A DNA stretch of 64,000 bases from contig CAYZGW010000002.1 in the NCBI GenBank assembly GCA_964478195.1, forward strand, positions 1,109-65,108, read 5' to 3'. Both the position numbers and the translations under genes were made by a program. Under the pieces are notes generated by a model. It saw only the letters and a list, made by a program, of their open reading frames with translations. It was not told the origin of the DNA and made no database searches. Position 1 is the stretch's first letter. Each line of letters opens with the position of its first letter. Source of the stretch: an uncultured Candidatus Saccharibacteria bacterium (GTDB lineage Bacteria > Patescibacteriota > Saccharimonadia > Saccharimonadales > UBA4665). Positions 4,042-61,074 of the stretch are shown here, piece by piece.

Positions 4042-4638
4042 GTGGCTAATTTAGGTCCCGCTAATGTCCATGAGACATTAAATGTGTTCCGAAGCCTGAC
4101 AGAAGCGCTGATTGAGGTAGATCCGCTCGCTTCATCTCCGCTTGGTAGGGCTGGCTTGGAGTCGTATTTTCTAGCGCTGCAAGATATGGCCTGTTTGCAC
4201 GGTGGTGCTCTAGGGCAACGACAGCAGATTATTAGGAACCTCAGTAGTCCAGGCCATATTGAAGTAGGGCGCGCAGCTACGGAACAGACGGTGTCACTCT
4301 ATGCTACTGTTTTGGGCGAAACGGCGATCAGGGCGGCGTCTTTGGCGGTTGGCTTGGAGTATAATCGCTATAACGAGAGTCATCATGAGGGCTTTTATCC
4401 TAAAAGGGTCTCTACAATGCTTTGCTATGGTACGCCCGTGTCTTGGTATGTCTCGCTTAAGAACTGGCGGCCGCCGTTTGACGTATCTGAAACTGGCAGT
4501 GAGGGTCCGGGTATCGGGGCGGCTGCAAGGGCGGATTATGGCAGAAGTCTTGGAATAGTGTTGGGTGTTATCCGGCAATTTAATGCGATACTTACTCCAA
4601 TGGCTGGCGCTATTCATCCGGATCATTCGAGCGAGTAG
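4042..4638 (+). CDS. Hypothetical protein, paralog A of a tandem pair inserted between ruvC and ruvA
   Basis: 198-aa ORF with a GTG start and no SD. TATATT lies 6 nt upstream. It shares blocks with the next ORF (QRQQIIRNLSSPGHIEVGR vs ERQQTVMQGLENPKFVKVDR; YGRSLGIVLGVIRQFNAILTPMAG vs YERLGLGLALVHAVSEGILKPLASG). Confidence 0.6.
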   Translation: MANLGPANVHETLNVFRSLTEALIEVDPLASSPLGRAGLESYFLALQDMACLHGGALGQRQQIIRNLSSPGHIEVGRAATEQTVSLYATVLGETAIRAASLAVGLEYNRYNESHHEGFYPKRVSTMLCYGTPVSWYVSLKNWRPPFDVSETGSEGPGIGAAARADYGRSLGIVLGVIRQFNAILTPMAGAIHPDHSSE

Positions 4639-4699: not shown

Positions 4700-5302
4700 A
4701 TGGCAGAATCAATCTCATTCGTTCCCGCTACTTTACTGAGCACCTTTCAGAATCAAGCCGAGACTCTTTATAGGGCAGATAGGCTTGCTGTCTACCCGCT
4801 CCGAGGCATAGCGCCGGTACGTTTACGGGCAGCACTGGGGCGTATTGTTGCTCAGCATCTAAAAGGCGATGAAGAGCGGCAGCAAACAGTGATGCAAGGG
4901 CTGGAAAATCCTAAATTTGTCAAAGTGGATAGAACAGAACTTCACGACAGAAGGAACAGTAGTACGCTGCGTGTAGCGCTTCTGGGCGAGATGGCTGCAG
5001 AAGGAGGCTGGTTCGATACAGAAGTTACATATTCAGAATCTAAGAAACCAGGCACAAGGGGTTTACGGTTTTCAGGACTTACTACTTGCATCAATTCCGA
5101 GACCGGCGGAGAGAAGCTTGAAGACGATTGGAGAGCGCTTTACAGGCTTGCACTCGATTGTGGAGGCCTTAACGACCTAGACCCTATACCACTTGATGAT
5201 TCGAGGTACGAAAGGCTGGGGCTGGGTCTCGCGTTGGTTCATGCAGTTAGTGAAGGAATTCTCAAACCTTTAGCTAGCGGGGTGGTGTCCGCAGAACTTT
5301 AG
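4700..5302 (+). CDS. Hypothetical protein, paralog B of the tandem pair
   Basis: 200-aa ORF with an ATG start. TTGGAC-16 nt-TATATT promoter-like motif ends 6 nt before the ATG, with no SD. Paralogous to 4042-4638. Confidence 0.6.
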   Translation: MAESISFVPATLLSTFQNQAETLYRADRLAVYPLRGIAPVRLRAALGRIVAQHLKGDEERQQTVMQGLENPKFVKVDRTELHDRRNSSTLRVALLGEMAAEGGWFDTEVTYSESKKPGTRGLRFSGLTTCINSETGGEKLEDDWRALYRLALDCGGLNDLDPIPLDDSRYERLGLGLALVHAVSEGILKPLASGVVSAEL

Positions 5303-5361: not shown

Positions 5362-5937
5362 ATGATTGCGACACTAAGCGGGGTGGTGAGCGAAAAGCTA
5401 GCCGATATGGTTGTGTTGGATGTGCGTGGCGTAGGCTACGGTTTACAAGTGACCGCTGAGGATTTTGGCCGATTACCCACTAGCGAAGCTGCTAAGCTCT
5501 ATGTGTATGAACATATCCGCGAACAAACCTACGATCTGTTCGGGTTTGTACAGCTGGATACCAAAAAATTGTTTGAACAACTGCTAGGTGTAAAAAATGT
5601 GGGGCCAAAAGTGGCGCTAGCTGTTTTGGATATTGGGACCGCACCTGCAGTGCGTGGTGCAATTGCAGCAGGCGACGTAAAGCTGCTGCAAAGCGCGAAA
5701 GGTGTAGGTAAACGTGCAGCCGAGCAGATTGTGGTGGAGCTGCGTGACAAAGTGGGCCTGAGTGCTAGCGATACTGCCGAAGGCATAGTGTCCCGCCCAG
5801 GCATTAATACGCAAGATGAAGCGGTGGAAGCGCTTATTTCACTGGGCTACACGCCGCAAGATGCGGCGGCGGCACTCAAAGATATTGACGCAGCACTTCC
5901 TAGTGAAGAACGCATAAAATTGGCGCTGAAGCGATGA
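5362..5937 (+). CDS. ruvA: Holliday junction branch migration complex subunit RuvA
   Basis: MIATLSGVV...VVLDVRGVGYGLQV, HhH motifs (LLGVKNVGPKVALAVL, LQSAKGVGKRAAEQIV), C-terminal domain III (ALISLGYTPQDA). Confidence 0.9.
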   Translation: MIATLSGVVSEKLADMVVLDVRGVGYGLQVTAEDFGRLPTSEAAKLYVYEHIREQTYDLFGFVQLDTKKLFEQLLGVKNVGPKVALAVLDIGTAPAVRGAIAAGDVKLLQSAKGVGKRAAEQIVVELRDKVGLSASDTAEGIVSRPGINTQDEAVEALISLGYTPQDAAAALKDIDAALPSEERIKLALKR

Positions 5938-6572
5938 GTATACGACCGATTGCGCCAAGGCTATCTGTCCAATTGAATGCTTGGGACAATGAGGTTGCTG
6001 ATTCGCTTGAGATTGATGATTCACTCGTGGAGCTAGCTGATTTTACTGGAGTGGTGCGTTTGCAAATTGATAGCTCAAAGCTAAGCGGCGTACTGCTAAC
6101 AGGTTTGGTGTTGGATAAATTGGAGCTAACTGATTCGCTAGGAACAAAGCTGGAAGCTGCAGCACTGCGTACTCACAAAGCGAACTTGCTGCGGGTAATA
6201 CTAACTGATTCTCGGCTGACTGGCGCAGAATTTGCCGAAGCCCACATCGAAGATTGTACCTTTAAAAATGTAAAATTTGATGAAGCTGGTTTTCGCTTTG
6301 CCAGTTTTAAGCGGGTGCGGTTTGAAGATTGCATACTACGTCAAGCAGATTTTAGTAGTGCTAGGTTTGAACAGGTACTATTTACCGGCTGTGATCTGGA
6401 AGCGACTAACTTTATGTCCGCTAACTGTAAGGACCTGGATGTAACTGCCGAAGACCTAACAGGCGTGAAGGGCATCTTAGGCCTAAAGGGCGCGACGATC
6501 TCTGAAGTGCAGCTGATGCAGCTAGCGCCGCTACTAGCAACAGAACTGGGCTTTCATATTAAAGAAATATAA
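5934..6572 (+). CDS. Pentapeptide repeat protein
   Basis: Runs of A(D/N)LxX-type pentapeptides (GAEFAEAHIEDCTFKNVKFDEAGFRFASFKRVRFEDCILRQADFSSARFEQVLFTGCDLEATNF). The start overlaps the ruvA stop (ATGA). Confidence 0.8.
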   Translation: MSIRPIAPRLSVQLNAWDNEVADSLEIDDSLVELADFTGVVRLQIDSSKLSGVLLTGLVLDKLELTDSLGTKLEAAALRTHKANLLRVILTDSRLTGAEFAEAHIEDCTFKNVKFDEAGFRFASFKRVRFEDCILRQADFSSARFEQVLFTGCDLEATNFMSANCKDLDVTAEDLTGVKGILGLKGATISEVQLMQLAPLLATELGFHIKEI

Positions 6573-6632: not shown

Positions 6633-7643
6633 ATGATAGAACGGATTGTTGGAGCAGCGCCGCAAGCGGATGATGAGGTCGAGCAGGAGCTGGAAAATAA
6701 ACTGCGTCCGCAAGACTTTGCGAATTACATTGGCCAGGACCGCTTAAAACAGAACTTGCAGCTGGCAATTCAAGCAGCCAAGAAACGCGGTGAGGCATTA
6801 GACCATGTACTGCTGTATGGCCCGCCGGGGCTGGGTAAAACTACCATGGCGAGTGTTATCGCCCATGAAATGGGTGCACAAATACGTATTACATCAGGAC
6901 CGGCGATTGAGCGGGCCGGTGATCTGGCAAGCCTGCTCACTAATCTGCAGGATGGTGACATCCTGTTTATAGACGAAATTCATCGCCTGCATCGCACGGT
7001 TGAAGAGGTGTTGTATAGCGCTATGGAAGATTACAAGCTGGACATCATGCTTGGTAAAGGCCCATCGGCGCGGAGTCTGCGGTTGGATTTGCCGCAGTTT
7101 ACACTTATTGGCGCTACTACACGTACGGGTGCTCTCGCTGCGCCACTGCGCGATCGGTTTGGGCACATTCATCGGCTCGAATTTTATACGCCCGAGCAGA
7201 TCTCTCAAATTATTACCCGGGCTGCCGGCATTTTAAACATCAAAATCGATATCTCAGCAGCTCTTAAGCTTGCTGAGCGTAGTCGGCTAACACCGCGTAT
7301 CGCCAACCGCTTGCTCAAACGAGTGCGTGACTACGCGGACGTGAATGGTGATGGTATTATTGACACTTCTATAAGCACTCGCGCGTTGGAGCTACTAGAA
7401 ATAGACAACCTGGGCCTAGATCCAGCTGATCGTATGCTGCTGGCGGCTATCATTGATAGTTATGACGGCGGACCGGTGGGTGTTGAAACTCTAGCGGCAC
7501 TTACAGCTGAAGAACGCAGTACCATCGAGGATTTTATTGAGCCATACCTGATGCAAATTGGCCTTTTAGAGCGTACACCGCGTGGTCGCAAAGTGACACG
7601 CAAAACGTACCAGCATCTTGGCAAACAAGCACCCAAGTCGTAG
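6633..7643 (+). CDS. ruvB: Holliday junction DNA helicase RuvB
   Basis: Walker [13 protein letters not shown], Walker [11 protein letters not shown], sensor GATTRTG, winged-helix C-terminus; 336 aa. Confidence 0.95.
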
Positions 7644-7724: not shown

Positions 7725-9194
7725 CTAAATCCTCTTGGTTTTTGGTTCCCCATCCGTAGGTAGTACTAATGTATGTCCACCGTAAACTAAGGCTTTTGGT
7801 TGTCTATTTAGATTTCTATCGACGGCCGTAGAACCGTATGACTGGACATACGCTCCCAGTCTTGCCGATTGTCCGGACGCAGGTGGCGTGGCTTTCGCAT
7901 CGTCAATTTGTGCCCCAGTAGGCCTGAAAGCAGACCATGTTTCTGTGCGGCGCATCCGTACCGCGCTACCTTCTCGTATTTCATCTCGTATTTCACTACG
8001 GTGCCGTGCTTTTTGCAAATCATGGCCTTGGTCGAGCATCTCGAGATCGTCACGACTTGGATCGGCGGCACGTAACATTTCATTCGTCCAGTCAAGGGCC
8101 GGTAGGCCGTATGCACCATGAATCGCCCGCTTTTTCACTGCCCACTCAACCCCTCTGCGGCTAAGCTTCTTAATGTCTCCCTCTTTGAGCTCTGCGATAA
8201 CCGCTTTCCATTCTTCGACTACGATCTTATCTTCAGCTGTTAGTAAGCCTCGCTCTGCCAATTCATGTGCTCTATCGATTAATGATTCGTGAGCATTAAT
8301 TGAGCTAATACCGGATATGGGTGCTGATAGGTCTCCATATGCGGTCCGCCACGCTAAGCGAAGAAGTGCCTCATTATTCAAGCTAATCGTTGGTGGTATT
8401 CCATTACTAATCATTTTAGCCACAAGAAGACCCGTGCCTCTGTCCATGAACTGGGCCCACGGTGATGTATGCGCATCCGGTGAAGTGTCACGCAGCATAG
8501 TTTTTAGCGTACCATCGGAAGGTAAGTTAGTACGTATGTCAACTAAGGCCGTAGGATTCATATACCCACCATAGATCTCTCTAATATGCGGGACCCTTTG
8601 ATGCCTTGCGTACGTTACCTGATTACGAGGATAGAAGACGCCGCCAGCTCCAAGAAATGAGGCGTTAGTGGCGCGGTGTAATGCAGCTAGGACTAAGGAT
8701 TCTGGGTTAAAGGCACCCGTTTCATTTCTAAACGGCACAATATACTTATTAGTGTATGTCCGTACTGCGTAGTCCCCGAAGCCTGGCAGGGATCTACCGA
8801 GGTCAGGTGTACTGGGGTCAAGTGATCGTTTGTGTAATGAATACGCAGCAATAGTCCCCTCATTGACCGCCCCATCAAACATATCAATAATATGTTGTTC
8901 ACCAGCCTGCTCCCCGACGACAGACTCCGTAGCTGTGGCGTACATCGGTGTATGGTACGTTATCGTTTGACCGTCGTATAGGGTAACATGTCCCCCATTT
9001 GACAGATAAAAGGTATGCGCCTGGTCGTGTGTTGGCGCTGGTTCATGCAACGTCGGCTTATCGGCAATCCAGGCTTGAAGTATTTCGCGCTGGAGGCCAT
9101 CACCAGGTAGGGTCAGGTCATCCTCGGGCGATTTGCTTACATACACAGAAAACTGTGTAGCATTTCCGACTTCATAAGCCGCATCTCTTGCCAT
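7725..9194 (-). CDS. Divergent Pup-ligase/deamidase (PafA/Dop) family homolog (carboxylate-amine ligase fold); function uncertain
   Basis: Blocks collinear with PafA/Dop: FYLSNGGHVTLYDGQTITYHTPMYATATE, FLGAGGVF, TALVDIRTNLP, GTGLLVAKMISNG, VEWAVKKRAI. Some catalytic-region motifs are degenerate. The ORF itself is solid (489 aa, no competing frame). Confidence 0.55.
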   Translation of the reverse strand: MARDAAYEVGNATQFSVYVSKSPEDDLTLPGDGLQREILQAWIADKPTLHEPAPTHDQAHTFYLSNGGHVTLYDGQTITYHTPMYATATESVVGEQAGEQHIIDMFDGAVNEGTIAAYSLHKRSLDPSTPDLGRSLPGFGDYAVRTYTNKYIVPFRNETGAFNPESLVLAALHRATNASFLGAGGVFYPRNQVTYARHQRVPHIREIYGGYMNPTALVDIRTNLPSDGTLKTMLRDTSPDAHTSPWAQFMDRGTGLLVAKMISNGIPPTISLNNEALLRLAWRTAYGDLSAPISGISSINAHESLIDRAHELAERGLLTAEDKIVVEEWKAVIAELKEGDIKKLSRRGVEWAVKKRAIHGAYGLPALDWTNEMLRAADPSRDDLEMLDQGHDLQKARHRSEIRDEIREGSAVRMRRTETWSAFRPTGAQIDDAKATPPASGQSARLGAYVQSYGSTAVDRNLNRQPKALVYGGHTLVLPTDGEPKTKRI

Positions 9195-9352
9195 TGGTTA
9201 TGTATAACAAGATTTTTACGTCTTTGCAACGTGAGCTAGGCACCTACTTGCTTACAGCAGAAGGGTCAAGAGGCAGTCCAGGGATGGGTATAGTGCTAAA
9301 AATCCTTGAGTATTAGGTCGTTATACGACAGAAGCGATATACTAGGTAATAT

Positions 9353-10138
9353 ATGCAAGTCACGCCTAAGGCCGATGCGGTCCTTCATCAGAAATTACCG
9401 ATTGATGCCGACGAGAAAATCCTAGCTGTATATAAACACCACTGGTTTGCTTATGCTAGCAGCTGGATGGTTGGCTTAGTGATAGCAGTTGCAGTGGTAG
9501 CACTCGCTGCTGCACTCACTGCCGTCGGTGGACCTGACGGTACGCTTGTACAGGATCGTTATCAAATTATAGCCGCAGCCAGCGTTTTTTCGCTACTAGT
9601 CCTGGCTGCTACCTGTATACCAGTATATCTGCGCTCACAGGAGCAGGTAGTGCTTACGGAAGAGGCATTGGTGCAGGTGCTGCGGCCAACACTATTCGCA
9701 AATAAGATTGATCAGCTAAGCCTAAGGCACATTAGCGACGTATCAGTAACTCAAGACTTCTTAGGCACTATGTTTGGTTTTGGTCATATTACGGTCGAGA
9801 CGCCGGGTGAGCAGAACAATTATCGTTTTTCTACCCTTACAGACCCCCATGAGTCGGCTCGGGAAATTATTGCCGCGCATGAAAACTTCGACGCCGCACT
9901 GCATTCTGGTCGTATGCCTACCACCATGGAAAGGGTCGCACAGCTACCGCCGCAGGTATCAACAATAGACCCCGAGCAATATCAGCAGTTTTTACAATAT
10001 CAGCAGATGGTCGCCCGTCAGCAGCAAGGACAACAATTTGGTGGTACCCCGCCTGCTGGCCAGCCGGGCGTGATGCCGCAGAACAACGCTCCTACAGAAG
10101 CTACCTTGCCGCCACAAGATCCCACGAGCCAACAGTAA
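9353..10138 (+). CDS. Membrane protein with bacterial PH (bPH_2, YdbS/YdbT-like) domain and Q/P-rich C-terminal tail
   Basis: DEKILAVYKHHWFAY followed by two TM helices, then ISDVSVTQDFLGTMFGFGHITVET, typical of bPH_2. The tail is low-complexity QQ/PP-rich and ends ...DPTSQQ. Confidence 0.6.
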   Translation: MQVTPKADAVLHQKLPIDADEKILAVYKHHWFAYASSWMVGLVIAVAVVALAAALTAVGGPDGTLVQDRYQIIAAASVFSLLVLAATCIPVYLRSQEQVVLTEEALVQVLRPTLFANKIDQLSLRHISDVSVTQDFLGTMFGFGHITVETPGEQNNYRFSTLTDPHESAREIIAAHENFDAALHSGRMPTTMERVAQLPPQVSTIDPEQYQQFLQYQQMVARQQQGQQFGGTPPAGQPGVMPQNNAPTEATLPPQDPTSQQ

Positions 10139-19689: not shown

Positions 19690-20307
19690 ATGCCGCGGAG
19701 GAATGTTATAAAGCAAGATGTAGCCGATAGTTTTCAGCATGTCTATGCCCGGGGTCATAGCCGCCATAGAATCTTTGGTGATGAGCAAGATTACATTACG
19801 TTCCTGACGCTGCTGCAGCGTTATTTATCTGCCGAAGAAGTGCGTGATGCATACGGTGTTCCTTATCCTAATTTCTATAACAAGGTTGAACTACTGACCT
19901 TTGTGCTAATGCCAAATCACTTTCACTTGTTAATTTACCAGCATCAGCCCGGGGCTATGGCACAGCTTATGAAAAGCCTGCTCACAAGCTATAGCCGTTA
20001 CTTTAATAAGAAATATAAGCGTAGTGGCTCGCTGTTTGAATCGCGCTATAAGGCTTCTATGGTCAGCGACGATTCATATCTGGAGCATATTTCCCGGTAT
20101 ATTCACTTGAACCCGCGACAGTGGCGTGAGTATGAGTACTCCAGCCTGCCGTATTATTTGCAACGCGATGAAGTGTCGTGGCTACGCCCAAAACGTATTC
20201 TAAATTTATTTGAGAGCCCAGAGGAATATTTGGAATTTGTTTCGGATTATGTTGAACAAAAGAAGATGATGGACATTCTAAAGCAAGAGTTGGCTAACGA
20301 TTTATAA
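19690..20307 (+). CDS. REP-associated tyrosine transposase (IS200-like Y1 HUH transposase family)
   Basis: HVYARGHSR..., HUH motif LMPNHFHLLI, SGSLFESRYKA, catalytic Tyr region ISRYIHLNPRQ; 205 aa. Confidence 0.8.
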   Translation: MPRRNVIKQDVADSFQHVYARGHSRHRIFGDEQDYITFLTLLQRYLSAEEVRDAYGVPYPNFYNKVELLTFVLMPNHFHLLIYQHQPGAMAQLMKSLLTSYSRYFNKKYKRSGSLFESRYKASMVSDDSYLEHISRYIHLNPRQWREYEYSSLPYYLQRDEVSWLRPKRILNLFESPEEYLEFVSDYVEQKKMMDILKQELANDL

Positions 20308-30195: not shown

Positions 30196-30272
30196 CGGGG
30201 TGTAGCGCAGTTTGGTAGCGCGCAGCGTTCGGGACGCTGAGGTCGCCGGTTCAAATCCAGTCACCCCGACCA
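30196..30272 (+). tRNA. tRNA-Pro (anticodon CGG), CCA encoded
   Basis: CGGGGTG/CACCCCG acceptor, CAGCG-TTCGGGA-CGCTG anticodon arm, and a T arm GCCGG-TTCAAAT-CCAGT with one C/A mismatch. Confidence 0.9.
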
Positions 30273-30328
30273 TTCATTGCTTTTATCGGACCTTCCAGGG
30301 GCCTCTACTGAATCGTAAGGAGAAAAAT

Positions 30329-30931
30329 ATGGGCGACACAAACAGCACTACAGTACAATCATATGAAGATCATATTCAGGAATATATCGATGGTACGCCG
30401 CAAGAAGTTGAGGGCTTAGTAAAAGAGTGGCTTGATAGAGCTCTTGAGAATCTGCCGCAGGATGCCCGTATATTAGAATTTGGTAGTGCGTTTGGTCGAG
30501 ATGCGGCCTACGTTCAATCTTTAGGCTATACGGTCCAATGCACGGATGTGACAGAGGGTTTTGTCGCCCTCCTACGGCAAAAGGGCTTTAACGCGCGCAA
30601 GCTCAATGCTATTACTGAAGCAATTGAAGGCTCATACGATTTAGTTTTAGCGAATGCAGTGCTTCTGCACTTTACCCGCGAAGAAACGACCGCGGTACTG
30701 AAAAAGGTGCTTGGTTCCTTGAATGTAGGTGGTAGGTTTGCCTTTACGCTTAAGCAGGGCGAGGGTGAAAAATGGACAGAGGATAAGCTTAATGCGCCCC
30801 GTTACTTCTGTTTTTGGACTAAAGATCAAATTGCTGGGGCGCTAGCAGAAGCAGGCTATACTAATGTGCAAGTGGAAGGTGATAAAGAGCTAAAGAACGC
30901 CACCTGGCTACACATTATTGCGGGTAAATAG
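30329..30931 (+). CDS. Class I SAM-dependent methyltransferase
   Basis: Start moved to the ATG at 30329 (AAGGAG at 30317-30322), because the track ORF start lies inside tRNA-Pro. Motif I ILEFGSAFGRDA, motif II-like DLVLANAVLLHF. Confidence 0.8.
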   Translation: MGDTNSTTVQSYEDHIQEYIDGTPQEVEGLVKEWLDRALENLPQDARILEFGSAFGRDAAYVQSLGYTVQCTDVTEGFVALLRQKGFNARKLNAITEAIEGSYDLVLANAVLLHFTREETTAVLKKVLGSLNVGGRFAFTLKQGEGEKWTEDKLNAPRYFCFWTKDQIAGALAEAGYTNVQVEGDKELKNATWLHIIAGK

Positions 30932-36272: not shown

Positions 36273-37076
36273 ATGCAAAATGGACCATATATCAAAGCCC
36301 GGACATTACCGGAGATAATTCGTAGCATCTGCCGTAACCAGGGCATCAACTTCCAATCCTTTTCAAACGACTGGGTACTGAGATTGGAAAAAGACAATAC
36401 GGTGCGCTGGATTGTCGGCTATAAATTTGACGTTAATTTGGCTGCATCCGGCCAACTCGCCCAAGATAAAGTAGCGACCTATATGGCGTTGCGTGCTGCA
36501 AGTGTACCAGCGATTGAGCACTACTTAGTACGTTCTATGCCGCATGATCCTACGCAATGGCACCTAAATTTACCTGATTTAGATGATCAACCAGTAGTGC
36601 TCAAACCGCTGGATGGTACTGGCGGGCGTGCTGTTGAACGGTTTGCATCACTTGCTGAAGCCATCCAGACAGCACAGTATAGCGGTGAGCCCGCTTGGGC
36701 CGTCTCGCCACATTACGATTTGCAATCAGAATACCGGCTAGTAATGTTGGACGGCAGGCTGCTACTATCGCTTGAAAAAACACAGCCCACTACGCGCGGC
36801 GACCTCAAGCTGTTTAATCTTGGATTTGGTGCAGTAGCGACGGATATCATCGACACATCATTACTTACTGATCTTACGAATATTGCAGGGCAGGTAATGC
36901 GCGTGTTGTCATTGCGTCTAGCTGCAGTTGATATTGTCCGTACTGCGGATAATATATTGCGGGTACTCGAGGTTAATGATGGGATTACTCTGGAACACTA
37001 CGCAGCGCAATCGACAGAATACCAGAAACGCGTTAAGGCTGTTTACGATGCGATTACGATAGCTCTGTTTGCCTAG
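36273..37076 (+). CDS. ATP-grasp fold ligase (RimK-like core, no pre-ATP-grasp domain)
   Basis: DKVATYMALRAASVP, VVLKPLDGTGGRAVERF, EYRLVMLDGRLL and AAVDIVRTADNILRVLEVNDG match ATP-grasp central and C-terminal motifs. Confidence 0.65.
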   Translation: MQNGPYIKARTLPEIIRSICRNQGINFQSFSNDWVLRLEKDNTVRWIVGYKFDVNLAASGQLAQDKVATYMALRAASVPAIEHYLVRSMPHDPTQWHLNLPDLDDQPVVLKPLDGTGGRAVERFASLAEAIQTAQYSGEPAWAVSPHYDLQSEYRLVMLDGRLLLSLEKTQPTTRGDLKLFNLGFGAVATDIIDTSLLTDLTNIAGQVMRVLSLRLAAVDIVRTADNILRVLEVNDGITLEHYAAQSTEYQKRVKAVYDAITIALFA

Positions 37077-46030: not shown

Positions 46031-46618
46031 CTAGACTAATGCCACAATGCGCTGGACGATAGTTTCTACGGCTGCCGTAATGTCGCCATCACCCTCTATC
46101 TCTACGACGTTGTAGCCATCATTCGCAAAGGTTGTATAATCATTCACGAACCGGCTGAAAGTGTTCTCAGAGGGTCCATGGCCACCTTGTTTCTTGCGTT
46201 CTTCAACCCGTTGCTTGGCTATCTCTGGAGCGATGTTTACCTCGACCACCAGGATGGGCAGCGTAACATGGCATTCTTCGGCGTGCTCTTTAAACCGGTC
46301 GACCATCTTATTGAAGATTTCAAGATTGGTAAAGGGCTGATTCCACATCACAATCTTGTGGTCGGCAATGCCCTGATAAGCTTTACCCCGTGAAAAGCGG
46401 TAAGCGTGCAGTGCAGGGTCAACGCCTTCAGCGATTTGGGCTGCGACATGGTCTTTATATTCCTGGCTTTCGTAGTCAATTGCATCAGGGTCAAGCATAA
46501 TGGTCACATCTTTGCCAAGAGCTTCTACGAGCTTAGCTGCAAGGTACGACTTTCCACTACCGGGTAGGCCGCGGATTAGGACAATAATAGGGTGTTGCAT
46601 GGTTTCGTATAGAGTCAT
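46031..46618 (-). CDS. P-loop kinase-like ATP-binding protein (AAA_33-like)
   Basis: Walker A IRGLPGSGKSYLA; 195 aa. No substrate-specific motif recognised. Confidence 0.7.
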   Translation of the reverse strand: MTLYETMQHPIIVLIRGLPGSGKSYLAAKLVEALGKDVTIMLDPDAIDYESQEYKDHVAAQIAEGVDPALHAYRFSRGKAYQGIADHKIVMWNQPFTNLEIFNKMVDRFKEHAEECHVTLPILVVEVNIAPEIAKQRVEERKKQGGHGPSENTFSRFVNDYTTFANDGYNVVEIEGDGDITAAVETIVQRIVALV

Positions 46619-49259: not shown

Positions 49260-50780
49260 CTACAGATCTTGGAAGATAGTGACCTGTGCGCCCAAGCTGT
49301 TCAAACGCTCGGCTAGGTCTTCATAGCCTCGGTTGATTGTGTAGATGTTGCGGAGCGTACTAATGCCATCAGCAGCCAACATACCAATTAGCAGCAAACT
49401 AGCAGGGCGCAGAGCCGGAGGGCATACCACATCGGCTCTAGTGAACTTGGATGGCCCTAGTACGTACAAACGGTGTGGGTCGGCCAGTTCTACCTGAGCG
49501 CCAATCTTGGTGAGTTCGGTGTAGTAAATAGCGCGGTTTTCGTAAATCCAGTCGTGGATAAGGGTGCGACCCTTGGCCAGACAGGCAACCAGTACGAAGT
49601 AGGGCAGGTTATCTGGGTTAATGCCAGGGAATAGGTTGGGATGTATCTTGTCGATAAGGGCTAATAGTTTGTGGTTATGCTTGTGTACTGTTATGTCGGC
49701 TAGGTCAATCTGACCGTTTTCGGCCTTGTAGGGCTCGCTCATGGTAAACTGCAAACCCATCTTCTTAAGCTTCAGTAACTCAAGAGCAATCCAGCGATAA
49801 GGAACGCGCTCAATAGTGATTTCCGAGTTAGTAACAGCGGCCGCGGTAATGAAGAACATCGCTTCAATAGGGTCCTCGGTGGGTGAGTAGGTGATGTTTT
49901 TCTTGATGAACGATACGCCAGTGACACGAACAAATGGAGTACCAATGCCTTCAATCTTGACGCCCAGTTTCTGTAAGAAATAGCAGAGATCCTGCACCAT
50001 GTAGTCGCCACTAACGCCTTGAATGAATACCGGACTGTCGGTACGGGCTGCCGCCATAAGCGCGTTGTTGGTAGCAGTGTTACTCTGCTCGTACAATGTA
50101 AATTCTTTGGGTGCCTTTTTGTCGACAGTGACGTTATAGTGACCTTCGGTAGCTACAATATCAACACCAAATTGCTCAAGTGCAAACAGGTGTGGCTCTA
50201 CGGTACGCTCCCCTAGCTTACAGCCGCCAGCGTAAGGAATCTTAAATTCCTCATAGTCGTGCATCAGGCTGCCCATTAGCATCAGTACGGAGCGGGTTTT
50301 ACGGGCCGCTACTTTATCCATTTTTTCAAGATTGAGTTTCTCTGGTCGGCGGATCTCTAGGTCATTGCCATTATGCCATTTGGTTTGTACGCCAATGCTG
50401 TTTAGCACTTCAATAATGCGGTTGACTTCCTCGATATGCGGGAAGTTGCGAAACTTGGTTACGCCATAGTTAAGTAAACTAGCGCACAATAGTGCTACCG
50501 CAGCATTTTTGCTAGTTTTAAGCTGGATATTGCCGCTTAGCTCATGTCCGCCCTCGATGCGTAGGTTTACGCTGCCACTACCCAGTGAAATGATCTGTTT
50601 GTTGAGTGCTTCGCTAAGGCGCCCGAGCGTCTCTAGGCTCAAGTTTTGCTTACCTTTTTCGATCCGGTTGACAGCGGATTGGGAAGTCCCAAGCCGTTCA
50701 GCGAATTCAGCCTGTGTCATGCCGCGTTCCTGTCGTACGCGAGCTATAAAATCGCCTATTTTTTCGTTGGTTGTTGCCAT
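49260..50780 (-). CDS. murA: XRE-family HTH domain fused to UDP-N-acetylglucosamine 1-carboxyvinyltransferase (MurA)
   Basis: Residues 1-66 form an HTH_3 domain (RQERGMTQAEFAERLGTSQSAVNRIEKGKQN). The remainder is a full EPT fold with KTSKNAAVALL, YAGGCKLGERTVEP, GINPDN, PPALRPAS and TINRGYEDLAERL. Confidence 0.85.
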   Translation of the reverse strand: MATTNEKIGDFIARVRQERGMTQAEFAERLGTSQSAVNRIEKGKQNLSLETLGRLSEALNKQIISLGSGSVNLRIEGGHELSGNIQLKTSKNAAVALLCASLLNYGVTKFRNFPHIEEVNRIIEVLNSIGVQTKWHNGNDLEIRRPEKLNLEKMDKVAARKTRSVLMLMGSLMHDYEEFKIPYAGGCKLGERTVEPHLFALEQFGVDIVATEGHYNVTVDKKAPKEFTLYEQSNTATNNALMAAARTDSPVFIQGVSGDYMVQDLCYFLQKLGVKIEGIGTPFVRVTGVSFIKKNITYSPTEDPIEAMFFITAAAVTNSEITIERVPYRWIALELLKLKKMGLQFTMSEPYKAENGQIDLADITVHKHNHKLLALIDKIHPNLFPGINPDNLPYFVLVACLAKGRTLIHDWIYENRAIYYTELTKIGAQVELADPHRLYVLGPSKFTRADVVCPPALRPASLLLIGMLAADGISTLRNIYTINRGYEDLAERLNSLGAQVTIFQDL

Positions 50781-59529: not shown

Positions 59530-60255
59530 ATGTCTCATAAAATCACCCAGTTCAACTGTTTTTCACCACCAGTGATGTTGGCGACGTTTGCTATTGAAAC
59601 TATCTTGGCCGCATACACAGTAGTGCGGTACAAACTGGATACGCTAGGGCGACTCTCTGTAATGATGCTTCTAGCACTGGCAGCCTTTCAGCTGTGTGAA
59701 TATCATGTTTGTGGTGGTTGGGGTGTTCGGGCAAGCGAATGGTCGCGAGCTGGCTATGTTGCGATTACGTTACTGCCACCTCTGGGACTACATATGCTTC
59801 ATGTTTTGGCTGATAAGCCAAAACGCCGCCTAGTGCTACTTGCCTATCTGACGATGATGGCATTTATTGCTTACTTTACGATTGTACCGCACGTTTTTCG
59901 CGGCTACGCCTGCACTGGTAACTATGTGATATTCCAGATAGGTACGCGGCCCGCCATAGCCTATGGTGTGTATTATTACGGTTGGATCCTAACGGCGATC
60001 GCGCTAGGAGTTCGCTGGGCTAGCATGCTTAGAAAGAAAGGTGCCAAAGCAAGATCTCGTATGTTTGGAGCGCAGGCTTTGGTGGTGGGTTACTTGATAT
60101 TCTTGGTACCAACAGCGCTTGCTAATAGCGTTAAGCCGGAAACCCGCCGAGGCATCCCAAGTATTATGTGTGGCTTCGCAGTCCTATTTGCACTGATTTT
60201 GGCGCTGTATATATTGCCGATGCTCGGCAAGCGTCGCGTAGCAGGCAAACATTGA
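59530..60255 (+). CDS. Integral membrane protein, unknown function
   Basis: 241 aa with about 7 TM helices. No catalytic motif recognised. Confidence 0.5.
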   Translation: MSHKITQFNCFSPPVMLATFAIETILAAYTVVRYKLDTLGRLSVMMLLALAAFQLCEYHVCGGWGVRASEWSRAGYVAITLLPPLGLHMLHVLADKPKRRLVLLAYLTMMAFIAYFTIVPHVFRGYACTGNYVIFQIGTRPAIAYGVYYYGWILTAIALGVRWASMLRKKGAKARSRMFGAQALVVGYLIFLVPTALANSVKPETRRGIPSIMCGFAVLFALILALYILPMLGKRRVAGKH

Positions 60256-60315
60256 GATTGCGCCTAGATAGGCTAGCGCCGTACAATACCAGCATAACGT
60301 AAAGGGAGAGGCTGT

Positions 60316-61074
60316 ATGGGCGGACTCGTAGCACTACTTGTGATCGTGCTTATTGTCATTGCGAATGGAGTCAGAATCATCAACCAGTACGAACGGGGTG
60401 TGGTGTTTCGGCTAGGTAGAGTTCGTGATGGTGTTAAAGAGCCGGGCCTGCGGCTGATTATCCCAATCGTCGACCAAATGCGTAAAGTTAGTATGCAGAT
60501 TGTGACGTTACCTATTGATAGCCAAAAGATTATCACCAAAGACAATGTGTCAATTGATGTTGCCGCTGTTGCGTACTACCAAATTACCGACCCAACAAAA
60601 GCTGTTGTAGAAATCCAGAATGTGGTTTCAGCGATTTATCAAGTTGCTCAGACTACACTTCGTAATATTGTGGGCCAAAGCAGTCTTGACGACGTACTGG
60701 GCCAAACTGCCAAGATTAATGACGCGGTTAAAGACATTTTGGACGAGGCAACTGCCAAGTGGGGCGTCTATGTTTCGAGCGTGAATCTAAAGGATATCCA
60801 ACTACCTGATAGTATGCAGCGGGCTATGGCCAAGCAAGCCGAAGCAGAACGTGAAAAGCGGGCTAAGATTATTGCCGCTGAAGGTGAACAGTTAAGTGCG
60901 ACTAAGCTTGGCGAAGCGGCCGATATAATTGCGGCGCATCCGATTGCGTTGCAGCTACGTAACTTGCAGGTACTTTCGGATATCGCCGTTGAAAAGAATA
61001 GTACCATTGTGTTTCCAGCACAGTTTATGGACACGGTAAAATCAATTAAAGATTTTATGGCTAAAGAGCAGTAG
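60316..61074 (+). CDS. SPFH/Band 7 (stomatin-like, slipin) protein
   Basis: N-terminal [30 protein letters not shown], and an [17 protein letters not shown] coiled coil. Confidence 0.9.

Follow-up and report, generated by a model that had tools for sequence, protein, structure and literature searches.

A degenerate Pup-ligase-family gene in a Saccharibacteria genome, a candidate pseudoenzyme with catalytically intact relatives in CPR bacteria

The window analyzed here is the whole 64,000-nucleotide stretch of DNA taken from an uncultured Candidatus Saccharibacteria bacterium (contig CAYZGW010000002.1, assembly GCA_964478195.1), and the gene in question, referred to as the target, is an open reading frame (ORF) on its reverse strand at 7725-9194 that starts with ATG and runs uninterrupted for 489 codons. 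As had been described in an earlier annotation made from the DNA letters (the sequence-only reading), the target stands between ruvB (6633-7643), with which it is convergent across an 81-bp gap, and a membrane-protein gene with a bacterial PH domain (bPH_2), from which it diverges across a 158-bp gap. Around it the window holds comEC, crp, a response regulator gene, yebC, ruvC, two ORFans, ruvA, a pentapeptide-repeat gene and a type IV pilus cluster (PilO/N/M, minor pilins, PilC, and PilB), together with recA, recX, genes for RNase Y and YmdB, cell-wall genes (murA-like, murB, ddl, and mraY-like), and genes for glycosyltransferases, serine hydroxymethyltransferase, a trehalase and an SPFH protein; Rfam reports only seven tRNAs. 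These competence genes, type IV pili and reduced metabolism fit Saccharibacteria. The earlier impression of a genome resembling the candidate phyla radiation (CPR) also agrees with two window genes, 59530-60255 and 60316-61074, which have adjacent counterparts at 65% and 60% identity in a Saccharibacteria metagenome-assembled genome (MAG; locus L017).

The target is a member of the PafA/Dop family by descent, yet it is neither PafA nor Dop. It matches the Pfam profile PF03136 (Pup_ligase) with 38.6 bits and an E value of 8.4e-10 (gathering score 25), residues 57-385 aligning to profile positions 69-381 of 441, and it stays below threshold for the NCBIfam equivalogs of PafA (TIGR03686; 17.7 bits, cut-off 551.3) and Dop (TIGR03688; 17 bits, cut-off 492.3). 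An exhaustive HMMER search with the target over 1.84 billion cluster representatives gave 129 relatives at E≤1e-3: P0001, which is essentially identical, P0002, which is 35-36% identical over the full length, and a remainder at 25-33% identity with E values down to 1e-17. Against a hidden Markov model (HMM) made solely from 39 intact relatives the target scores 183 bits (E 1e-57). Other searches returned little. Word-indexed searches of 5.8 billion proteins, with the target alone and with a profile of target and P0002, returned only P0001 and P0002; a genome-contig scan with the target sequence alone gave no match, and phmmer with the single sequence found nothing in the PDB. A profile of the target and 40 relatives, by comparison, matches Dop (4B0R/5LRT) in the PDB at E 2e-93 and PafA (4B0T/4BJR) at about 1e-86.

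The predicted structure points the same way. An AlphaFold2 model built on the alignment of the target with 40 relatives (predicted local distance difference test score, pLDDT, 82.7; predicted template-modelling score, pTM, 0.88) has the two-domain PafA/Dop fold, a glutamine synthetase-like beta-cradle followed by a C-terminal helical domain. When the model was compared with the PDB by Foldseek, the top 11 matches were all Dop (7oxy, 4b0r, and 5lrt) or PafA (4bjr), with E values of 2e-18 to 2e-16 and template-modelling (TM) scores of 0.66-0.72. The next matches were YbdK/GCS2 and glutamine synthetases (E 1e-5 to 1e-3, TM 0.3-0.45), which share the cradle with the target and lack the PafA/Dop C-terminal domain; the target, for its part, lacks the Ex[EH] metal motif of that superfamily. 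Given the profile, HMMER, PDB and fold results, the earlier call of a divergent PafA/Dop homolog, for which comparison with PF03136 and with Dop and PafA structures had been proposed, is correct far beyond chance. So are the motif pairings listed with it, which agree with the computed alignments, including those of the degenerate GIETE and HENY blocks.

The best structural match is Acidothermus cellulolyticus Dop (4B0R, 5LRT, and 7OXY; E 2e-18, TM 0.68-0.72). Both proteins have the cradle and the helical domain, and the target is collinear with Dop over about 470 residues, but only 15% of the residues are identical in the structural alignment. The distance from the strand-1 motif to the SNG motif is 51 residues in the target and 76 in Acidothermus Dop, so that the target has no long Dop-loop, and it has no adjacent pup gene. 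Corynebacterium glutamicum PafA (4B0T and 4BJR; E 3e-17, TM 0.67) has the same fold, a similar length and a similarly short N-terminal region. However, the target has lost the PafA motifs GhExE, HxN and [QH]x4D as well as the acidic positions of strands 2 and 3, and has no Pup, Mpa or proteasome gene in its neighbourhood. In the C-terminal domain, the family motif PPxxTRAxxR reads PPASGQSARL.

The catalytic residues of the family are well defined. In Acidothermus Dop, Mg2+ is bound by Glu8, Glu10, Tyr92, Glu99, His155 and His241, Asp94 serves to activate the water for hydrolysis, Arg90 is in contact with the alpha-phosphate, Arg227 keeps the phosphate in place, and the nucleotide pocket has His231 and Trp453 as its stacking residues (PMC8599861). 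The family signature consists of GhExE in strand 1, acidic residues in strands 2 and 3, [HQ]x[NH] in strand 4, [QH]x4D in strand 6, and two arginine fingers (PMC2588565). To place these positions, Dop residues 2-459 were rebuilt from HMMER output and aligned by hmmalign, with the target and P0002, to the HMM of 39 intact relatives; the equivalents of Glu8, Glu10, Trp453 and the loop arginine were read from MAFFT alignments.

Nearly all of these residues are gone from the target. In strand 1, the P0002 segment QNVAEYSI bridges the target to GIETEYGIS of Dop, giving G10-N11-A12-T13-Q14 as the equivalent of GhExE; this register is preferred to that of the sequence-only reading, in which Glu8 was paired with the first Glu of GIETE and which is rejected here. 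In strands 2 and 3, Arg90, Tyr92, Asp94, Glu99 and Glu104 of Dop correspond to His69, Thr71, Tyr73, Thr79 and Met84. Strand 4 reads Thr148-Asn149-Lys150, with Thr148 in place of His155 and Asn149 in place of Glu156. Further on, His231 is replaced by Pro225, Arg239 by Met233, and His241 (the metal- and phosphate-contacting His of [QH]x4D) by Arg235, while Trp453 falls on Gly472 or a gap. What is kept is the Asp of [QH]x4D (Asp246 of Dop, Asp240 of the target) and both arginine fingers, namely Arg200 in the loop before strand 5 and Arg221 in strand 5, the latter equivalent to Arg227 of Dop.

In sum, none of the six Mg2+ ligands of Dop is left in the target, the catalytic Asp, the Arg that contacts the alpha-phosphate and the two residues stacking on the nucleotide are likewise replaced or absent, and the arginine fingers are the only one of the five catalytic signatures present. 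Within the family such loss is exceptional: Glu99, His155 and Arg239 do not vary among the 39 other aligned members that cover them, the remaining catalytic positions show isolated changes only, and Asp94, Glu99, His155, Arg227 and Arg239 are kept in 19 of 19 homologs taken from genome loci. The crystal complex of PafA with Pup (4BJR) was obtained with a D64N variant, at the position equivalent to Asp94 of Dop. The claim of degenerate catalytic motifs is thus borne out by alignment to Dop and to intact relatives, and the residues suggest that the target cannot carry out the reactions of its family, which depend on ATP and Mg2+. The D64N change in PafA was presumably chosen to block turnover. 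A natural pseudoenzyme of this kind (a catalytically dead PafA/Dop homolog) was not found described in the searchable literature.

Table 1. Coordinates of the target gene and of the features discussed in the text
Feature	Position	Strand	Basis and remarks
Complete coding sequence, degenerate Pup-ligase-family protein	7725..9194	-	ORF list, PF03136, intact-member HMM, fold; stop codon 7725-7727
Degenerate GhExE equivalent GNATQ, residues 10-14 (Dop Glu8/Glu10 to Ala12/Gln14)	9153..9167	-	MAFFT alignments A1 (target and 40 relatives) and A3; P0002 bridge
Strands 2-3, residues 69-84	8943..8990	-	hmmalign with intact-member HMM and Acidothermus Dop
Degenerate GxHENY equivalent TYTNKY, residues 146-151	8742..8759	-	Alignments; strand-4 motif [HQ]x[NH] (PMC2588565)
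Residues 221-240 (Arg221 kept, Pro225, Met233, Arg235, Asp240 kept)	8475..8534	-	Alignments
C-terminal domain typical of PafA/Dop, residues about 400-489, poorly conserved	7728..7997	-	Alignments; model helical at 399-453, low pLDDT past residue 460
Tandem duplication, two perfect 12-nt copies of the unit TCTCGTATTTCA, adding EIRD	7972..7995	-	Single-copy in second sample; low-confidence loop of the model
Divergent intergenic region between target and bPH_2 gene	9195..9352	.	Sequence read

The age of the loss can be approached through P0002, a 475-aa protein that is likewise degenerate. At the positions of Dop Glu8, Glu10, Arg90, Tyr92, Asp94 and Glu99 it has Val, Glu, Val, Thr, Tyr and Arg, and at those of Glu104, His155, Arg227, Arg239 and His241 it has Glu, Arg, Tyr (Tyr215), Ile and His. 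P0002 does not share the arginine fingers, having Lys at the loop position in addition to Tyr215. Three derived residues (Thr71, Tyr73, and Asn149 of the target) are common to both proteins, and therefore inactivation probably predates their split. Other lost positions differ between target and P0002 (Thr/Arg, Met/Ile, and Arg/His), and since this holds for most of them the pocket looks relaxed rather than remodelled into a new common active site. The two proteins jointly keep 26 of 61 comparable highly conserved family columns, mostly structural ones. The frames remain open in both, over 475-489 codons, and by a rough estimate a single frame would stay open by chance with a probability of (61/64)^489, or about 6e-11. 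That two lineages so far apart have both kept a full-length open frame speaks for selection on the protein.

P0002 is encoded on a 189-kb contig from a metagenome (locus L021), among genes for MarR, an MFS transporter, DUF218, EamA and others. The window has no neighbour genes in common with this locus or with locus L002, and no Pup or proteasome genes were found around P0002 in L021. Near P0002 (L021:13279-15123, reverse strand), a 91-aa acidic ORF lies directly upstream of a gene whose 520-aa product has a weak asparagine-synthase-like match. The layout recalls peptide-modification loci, and a weak tblastn match there to a Pup helix (E 0.005) is probably spurious.

The target gene itself is present in a second, independent assembly (Logan SRR9179560), with zero substitutions in 1,470 bp. 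The one difference within the gene is in frame, a 12-nt slippage polymorphism (the EIRD duplication of Table 1). Of the four substitutions that separate this assembly from the window, three fall upstream of the gene, in the 158-bp intergenic region, and the fourth is a synonymous change in the neighbouring gene.

Iyer et al. found a pup gene (50-90 aa, with a G[EQ] C-terminus) beside the PafA-family gene invariably in all lineages that they examined (PMC2588565). Partners of this kind were sought in the window with Mpa, Dop, Pup, PrcB, PrcA and PafA probes from locus L015, which has the full canonical gene order, and through Pfam scans that took in all greedy-called ORFs of 107 aa or more. The Pfam scans detected no proteasome, AAA+ Mpa/ARC or Pup family. 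Among all six-frame ORFs of the window, phmmer --max with Mpa, Pup, PrcA and PrcB returned nothing but a weak generic AAA+ match to RuvB, and with Dop and PafA it returned the target only. No ORF in the 64 kb combines a G[EQ] ending with Pup-like length and acidity, tblastn of the window with three Pup sequences (CPR and other) gave no match, and the family HMM revealed no second copy or fragment of a Pup_ligase gene. The earlier statement that Pup, prcA/prcB and mpa/arc genes are absent is thus confirmed within the window, where the target has neither a linked pup nor a linked mpa/arc-prcA/prcB locus. A PADLOC scan of the target and five neighbours gave zero matches.

The closest relatives of the target in sequence, at 25-33% identity, are single-copy homologs of Saccharibacteria and other Patescibacteria (P0003-P0045; L004-L013 and L017), which share a phylum-level host with it. 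Unlike the degenerate pair formed by target and P0002, these keep the catalytic constellation. When species-representative genomes were scanned with a sub-cluster of 12 sequences drawn from the nearest intact relatives, 17 loci were returned: 11 bear a Saccharibacteria, Saccharimonadales or Saccharimonadaceae label, one a Patescibacteria label and two a Sungbacteria label, and three are unlabelled. Single homologs with intact catalytic residues are common in Saccharibacteria, and nine MAG loci of this group (L004-L009, L012, L013, and L017) carry one catalytically intact Pup_ligase homolog each. As with the target, these are lone genes: no Pup-like ORF was found within up to 10 kb of the homolog and no neighbours are conserved among the nine loci. 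They form an exception, because Iyer et al. found PafA-family genes with pup neighbours in all lineages that they surveyed (PMC2588565).

Other loci look different. In a Patescibacteria locus (L010, 3719-5280) the single homolog directly follows a gene for a 67-aa Pup ending in RGGQ. In a Sungbacteria locus (L018, 13-5137), an AAA gene, a Dop-like gene, a gene for a Pup that ends in GGE and a PafA-like gene occur together, and the 7-kb contig is free of proteasome genes, while L011 and L015 (2785-9065) have the full order mpa-dop-pup-prcB-prcA-pafA. This distribution hints at a tagging system in CPR bacteria that would be independent of the proteasome. No description of pupylation genes in CPR bacteria was found in the searchable literature, and a published list of phyla with homologs does not mention CPR (PMC7947786). 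Such a system may deserve more attention than the dead copy. Lehmann and coworkers reportedly described related systems (UBact) in some candidate phyla in 2017.

In one of the nine MAG loci (L017:9992-14273), the intact Pup_ligase homolog is flanked by counterparts of two window genes at 59530-61074, which encode a 241-aa protein and an SPFH/Band-7 protein. At the corresponding position the window has a 130-aa ORF, a VIT1-family gene and a tRNA-Phe instead, and no Pup_ligase homolog.

Taken together, the evidence favors the view that the target is a pseudoenzyme derived from a native CPR Pup-ligase-family enzyme and kept for a noncatalytic role, to which a probability of roughly 0.6 is assigned. 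The ancestor would have been a single-copy enzyme native to Saccharibacteria and other CPR bacteria. Its descendant would have retained the two-domain PafA/Dop fold and lost the Mg2+/ATP site along with the catalytic aspartate, so that it should neither phosphorylate a C-terminal glutamate, nor ligate it to lysine, nor hydrolyze such a bond. Inactivation would have taken place before the split from P0002, the only known relative on the degenerate branch, and the gene would have remained open and full-length since. The beta-sheet cradle and the surface around it may now provide a docking site for a partner from the enzyme's past, whether a Pup-like tail, a one-time substrate or a paralog that is still active, and the effect of docking may be regulatory or sequestering.

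Several points weigh against this view. The inactivity is deduced from residues, and the AlphaFold model, being built on aligned intact relatives, agrees in fold partly by construction. With four substitutions in all between the two samples, that comparison has no statistical power. The binding role has no independent support, because there is no Pup-like gene in the window or near P0002 and the two degenerate genes have no neighbours in common. Finally, the degenerate clade comprises two sequence clusters only in 5.8 billion proteins, and a clade so rare could be a slowly dying gene.

The last point leads to the explanation that competes best with a retained pseudoenzyme, which is that the target is a decaying remnant without function whose ancestral enzyme is no longer needed and whose ORF has not yet been disrupted. 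CPR genomes undergo reduction, and the rarity of the clade, the differences between target and P0002 at the eroded catalytic positions, the lack of partner genes nearby, the lost C-terminal motif and the low confidence with which the C-terminal domain is modelled would all be expected of a relic. However, streamlined genomes usually delete dead genes quickly, whereas here full-length open frames persist in two lineages that are only 35% identical, both proteins keep 26 of the 61 comparable family columns, mostly structural ones, the score against the family HMM is still 183 bits, and the sole length polymorphism is in frame. A relic is therefore considered rather unlikely, if the most serious of the alternatives.

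It is more doubtful still that the target remains an enzyme with altered chemistry, either a repurposed carboxylate-amine ligase (as the sequence-only reading had proposed) or a metal-independent hydrolase or transferase working in the same cradle. The fold and beta-cradle are kept, Arg200, Arg221 and Asp240 are retained in the target, and Thr71, Tyr73 and Asn149 are derived pocket residues common to the target and P0002. But all six Mg2+ ligands and the equivalents of the nucleotide-contacting Arg90, His231 and Trp453 are gone, which makes ATP-dependent chemistry implausible. The retained arginines are not conserved within the clade either, because P0002 has Tyr215 at the Arg227 position and Lys at that of the strictly conserved loop arginine, and most pocket positions differ between the two proteins. 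A carboxylate-amine ligase in particular is unlikely, since the residues that define that chemistry are gone rather than just modified.

A narrower version of the pseudoenzyme reading, in which the target is a noncatalytic reader or decoy that binds a disordered Pup-like tag ending in Glu or Gln, is a similarly long shot; with such a protein the pupylation family would gain its first natural pseudoenzyme. A reader or decoy could regulate a proteasome-free tagging system of Saccharibacteria or, more speculatively, could engage Pup or pupylated proteins of an actinobacterial host.

The origin of the gene appears to lie within CPR bacteria. In a rough neighbor-joining tree, the target and P0002 are paired and fall among the CPR forms that occur in single copy, whereas Acidothermus Dop sits in a separate clade with the Sungbacteria pairs and the Dop/PafA pairs of L011 and L015; the deep placement of the target is uncertain because the tree is distance-based and star-like. 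In codon usage the target ranks 10th of 23 long window genes, and its GC content is 49.5% against a mean of 50.0%. The earlier annotation had offered transfer from an actinobacterial host as one origin. A recent gain of pafA or dop by this route, followed by degeneration in the epibiont, might be imagined since pupylation is typical of Actinobacteria (PMC7947786) and cultivated Saccharibacteria are described as living on Actinobacteria (PMC10633639), but it is very improbable given that the best relatives are the CPR single-copy homologs at 25-33% identity, that the L015 probes for Dop and PafA match the target only at E 3e-4 and 0.05 and the PafA and Dop equivalogs at 17-18 bits, that the target falls outside the Dop/PafA clade of the tree and lacks the long Dop-loop, and that its codon usage and GC content are native.

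The pseudoenzyme reading bears on annotation and on future work. Because it matches PF03136, the target would be annotated automatically as a Pup ligase, and pupylation would then be wrongly inferred in metabolic reconstructions; the residue-level test shows that such an inference from the PF03136 match would be wrong. The dead copy could be used to probe the binding surfaces of a CPR tagging system.

The region upstream of the target offers a possible start of transcription. A putative promoter, recognized by eye, consists of TTGCAA (9229-9224), a spacer of 17 nt and TATACA (9206-9201), which ends 6 nt short of the ATG. It is a weak candidate, the same site not being reported by a consensus scan, and as a by-eye guess it counts among the points against the pseudoenzyme reading. 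By the same by-eye reading no Shine-Dalgarno sequence was seen before the ATG, and the transcript of the target could be leaderless. The divergent neighbour across this region (9353-10138, forward strand) encodes the 261-aa bPH_2 membrane protein, which has a low-complexity Gln/Pro-rich C-terminal tail ending in DPTSQQ.

On the other side of the target, the ruvCAB cluster is twice interrupted by unrelated genes, because two ORFans and a pentapeptide-repeat gene are inserted in it. The ORFans (4042-4638 and 4700-5302, forward strand) lie in tandem between ruvC and ruvA, encode about 200 aa each and are weak collinear paralogs (BLASTP E 0.002). Neither has a Pfam match even at E 10, and no homolog was found in 5.8 billion proteins beyond the contig of the window itself. 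Both were considered as proteasome-like or partner proteins and rejected, as they match neither PrcA nor PrcB nor any Pfam family, and their AlphaFold model (pLDDT 42) is unusable. The pentapeptide-repeat gene (5934-6572, forward strand) separates ruvA from ruvB, with a 4-nt overlap at the ruvA stop.

Elsewhere in the window, a gene at 49260-50780 (reverse strand) encodes a 506-aa protein with an unusual fusion of a Cro/C1-type HTH_3 domain (residues 12-62) to a full EPSP_synthase/MurA-type domain (residues 76-493). An ATP-grasp protein of R2K clade family 3 (peptide/amino-acid ligase type) is encoded at 36273-37076 (forward strand) and is followed by a 277-aa ORF without a Pfam match. An IS200-like Y1 transposase gene (19690-20307, forward strand) adjoins recA, and a zeta-toxin/AAA_33-type kinase gene (46031-46618, reverse strand) has no evident antitoxin partner. 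The longest-ORF call of a methyltransferase gene at 30212-30931 overlaps tRNA-Pro(CGG) at 30196-30272, and the true start of the gene is probably further downstream.

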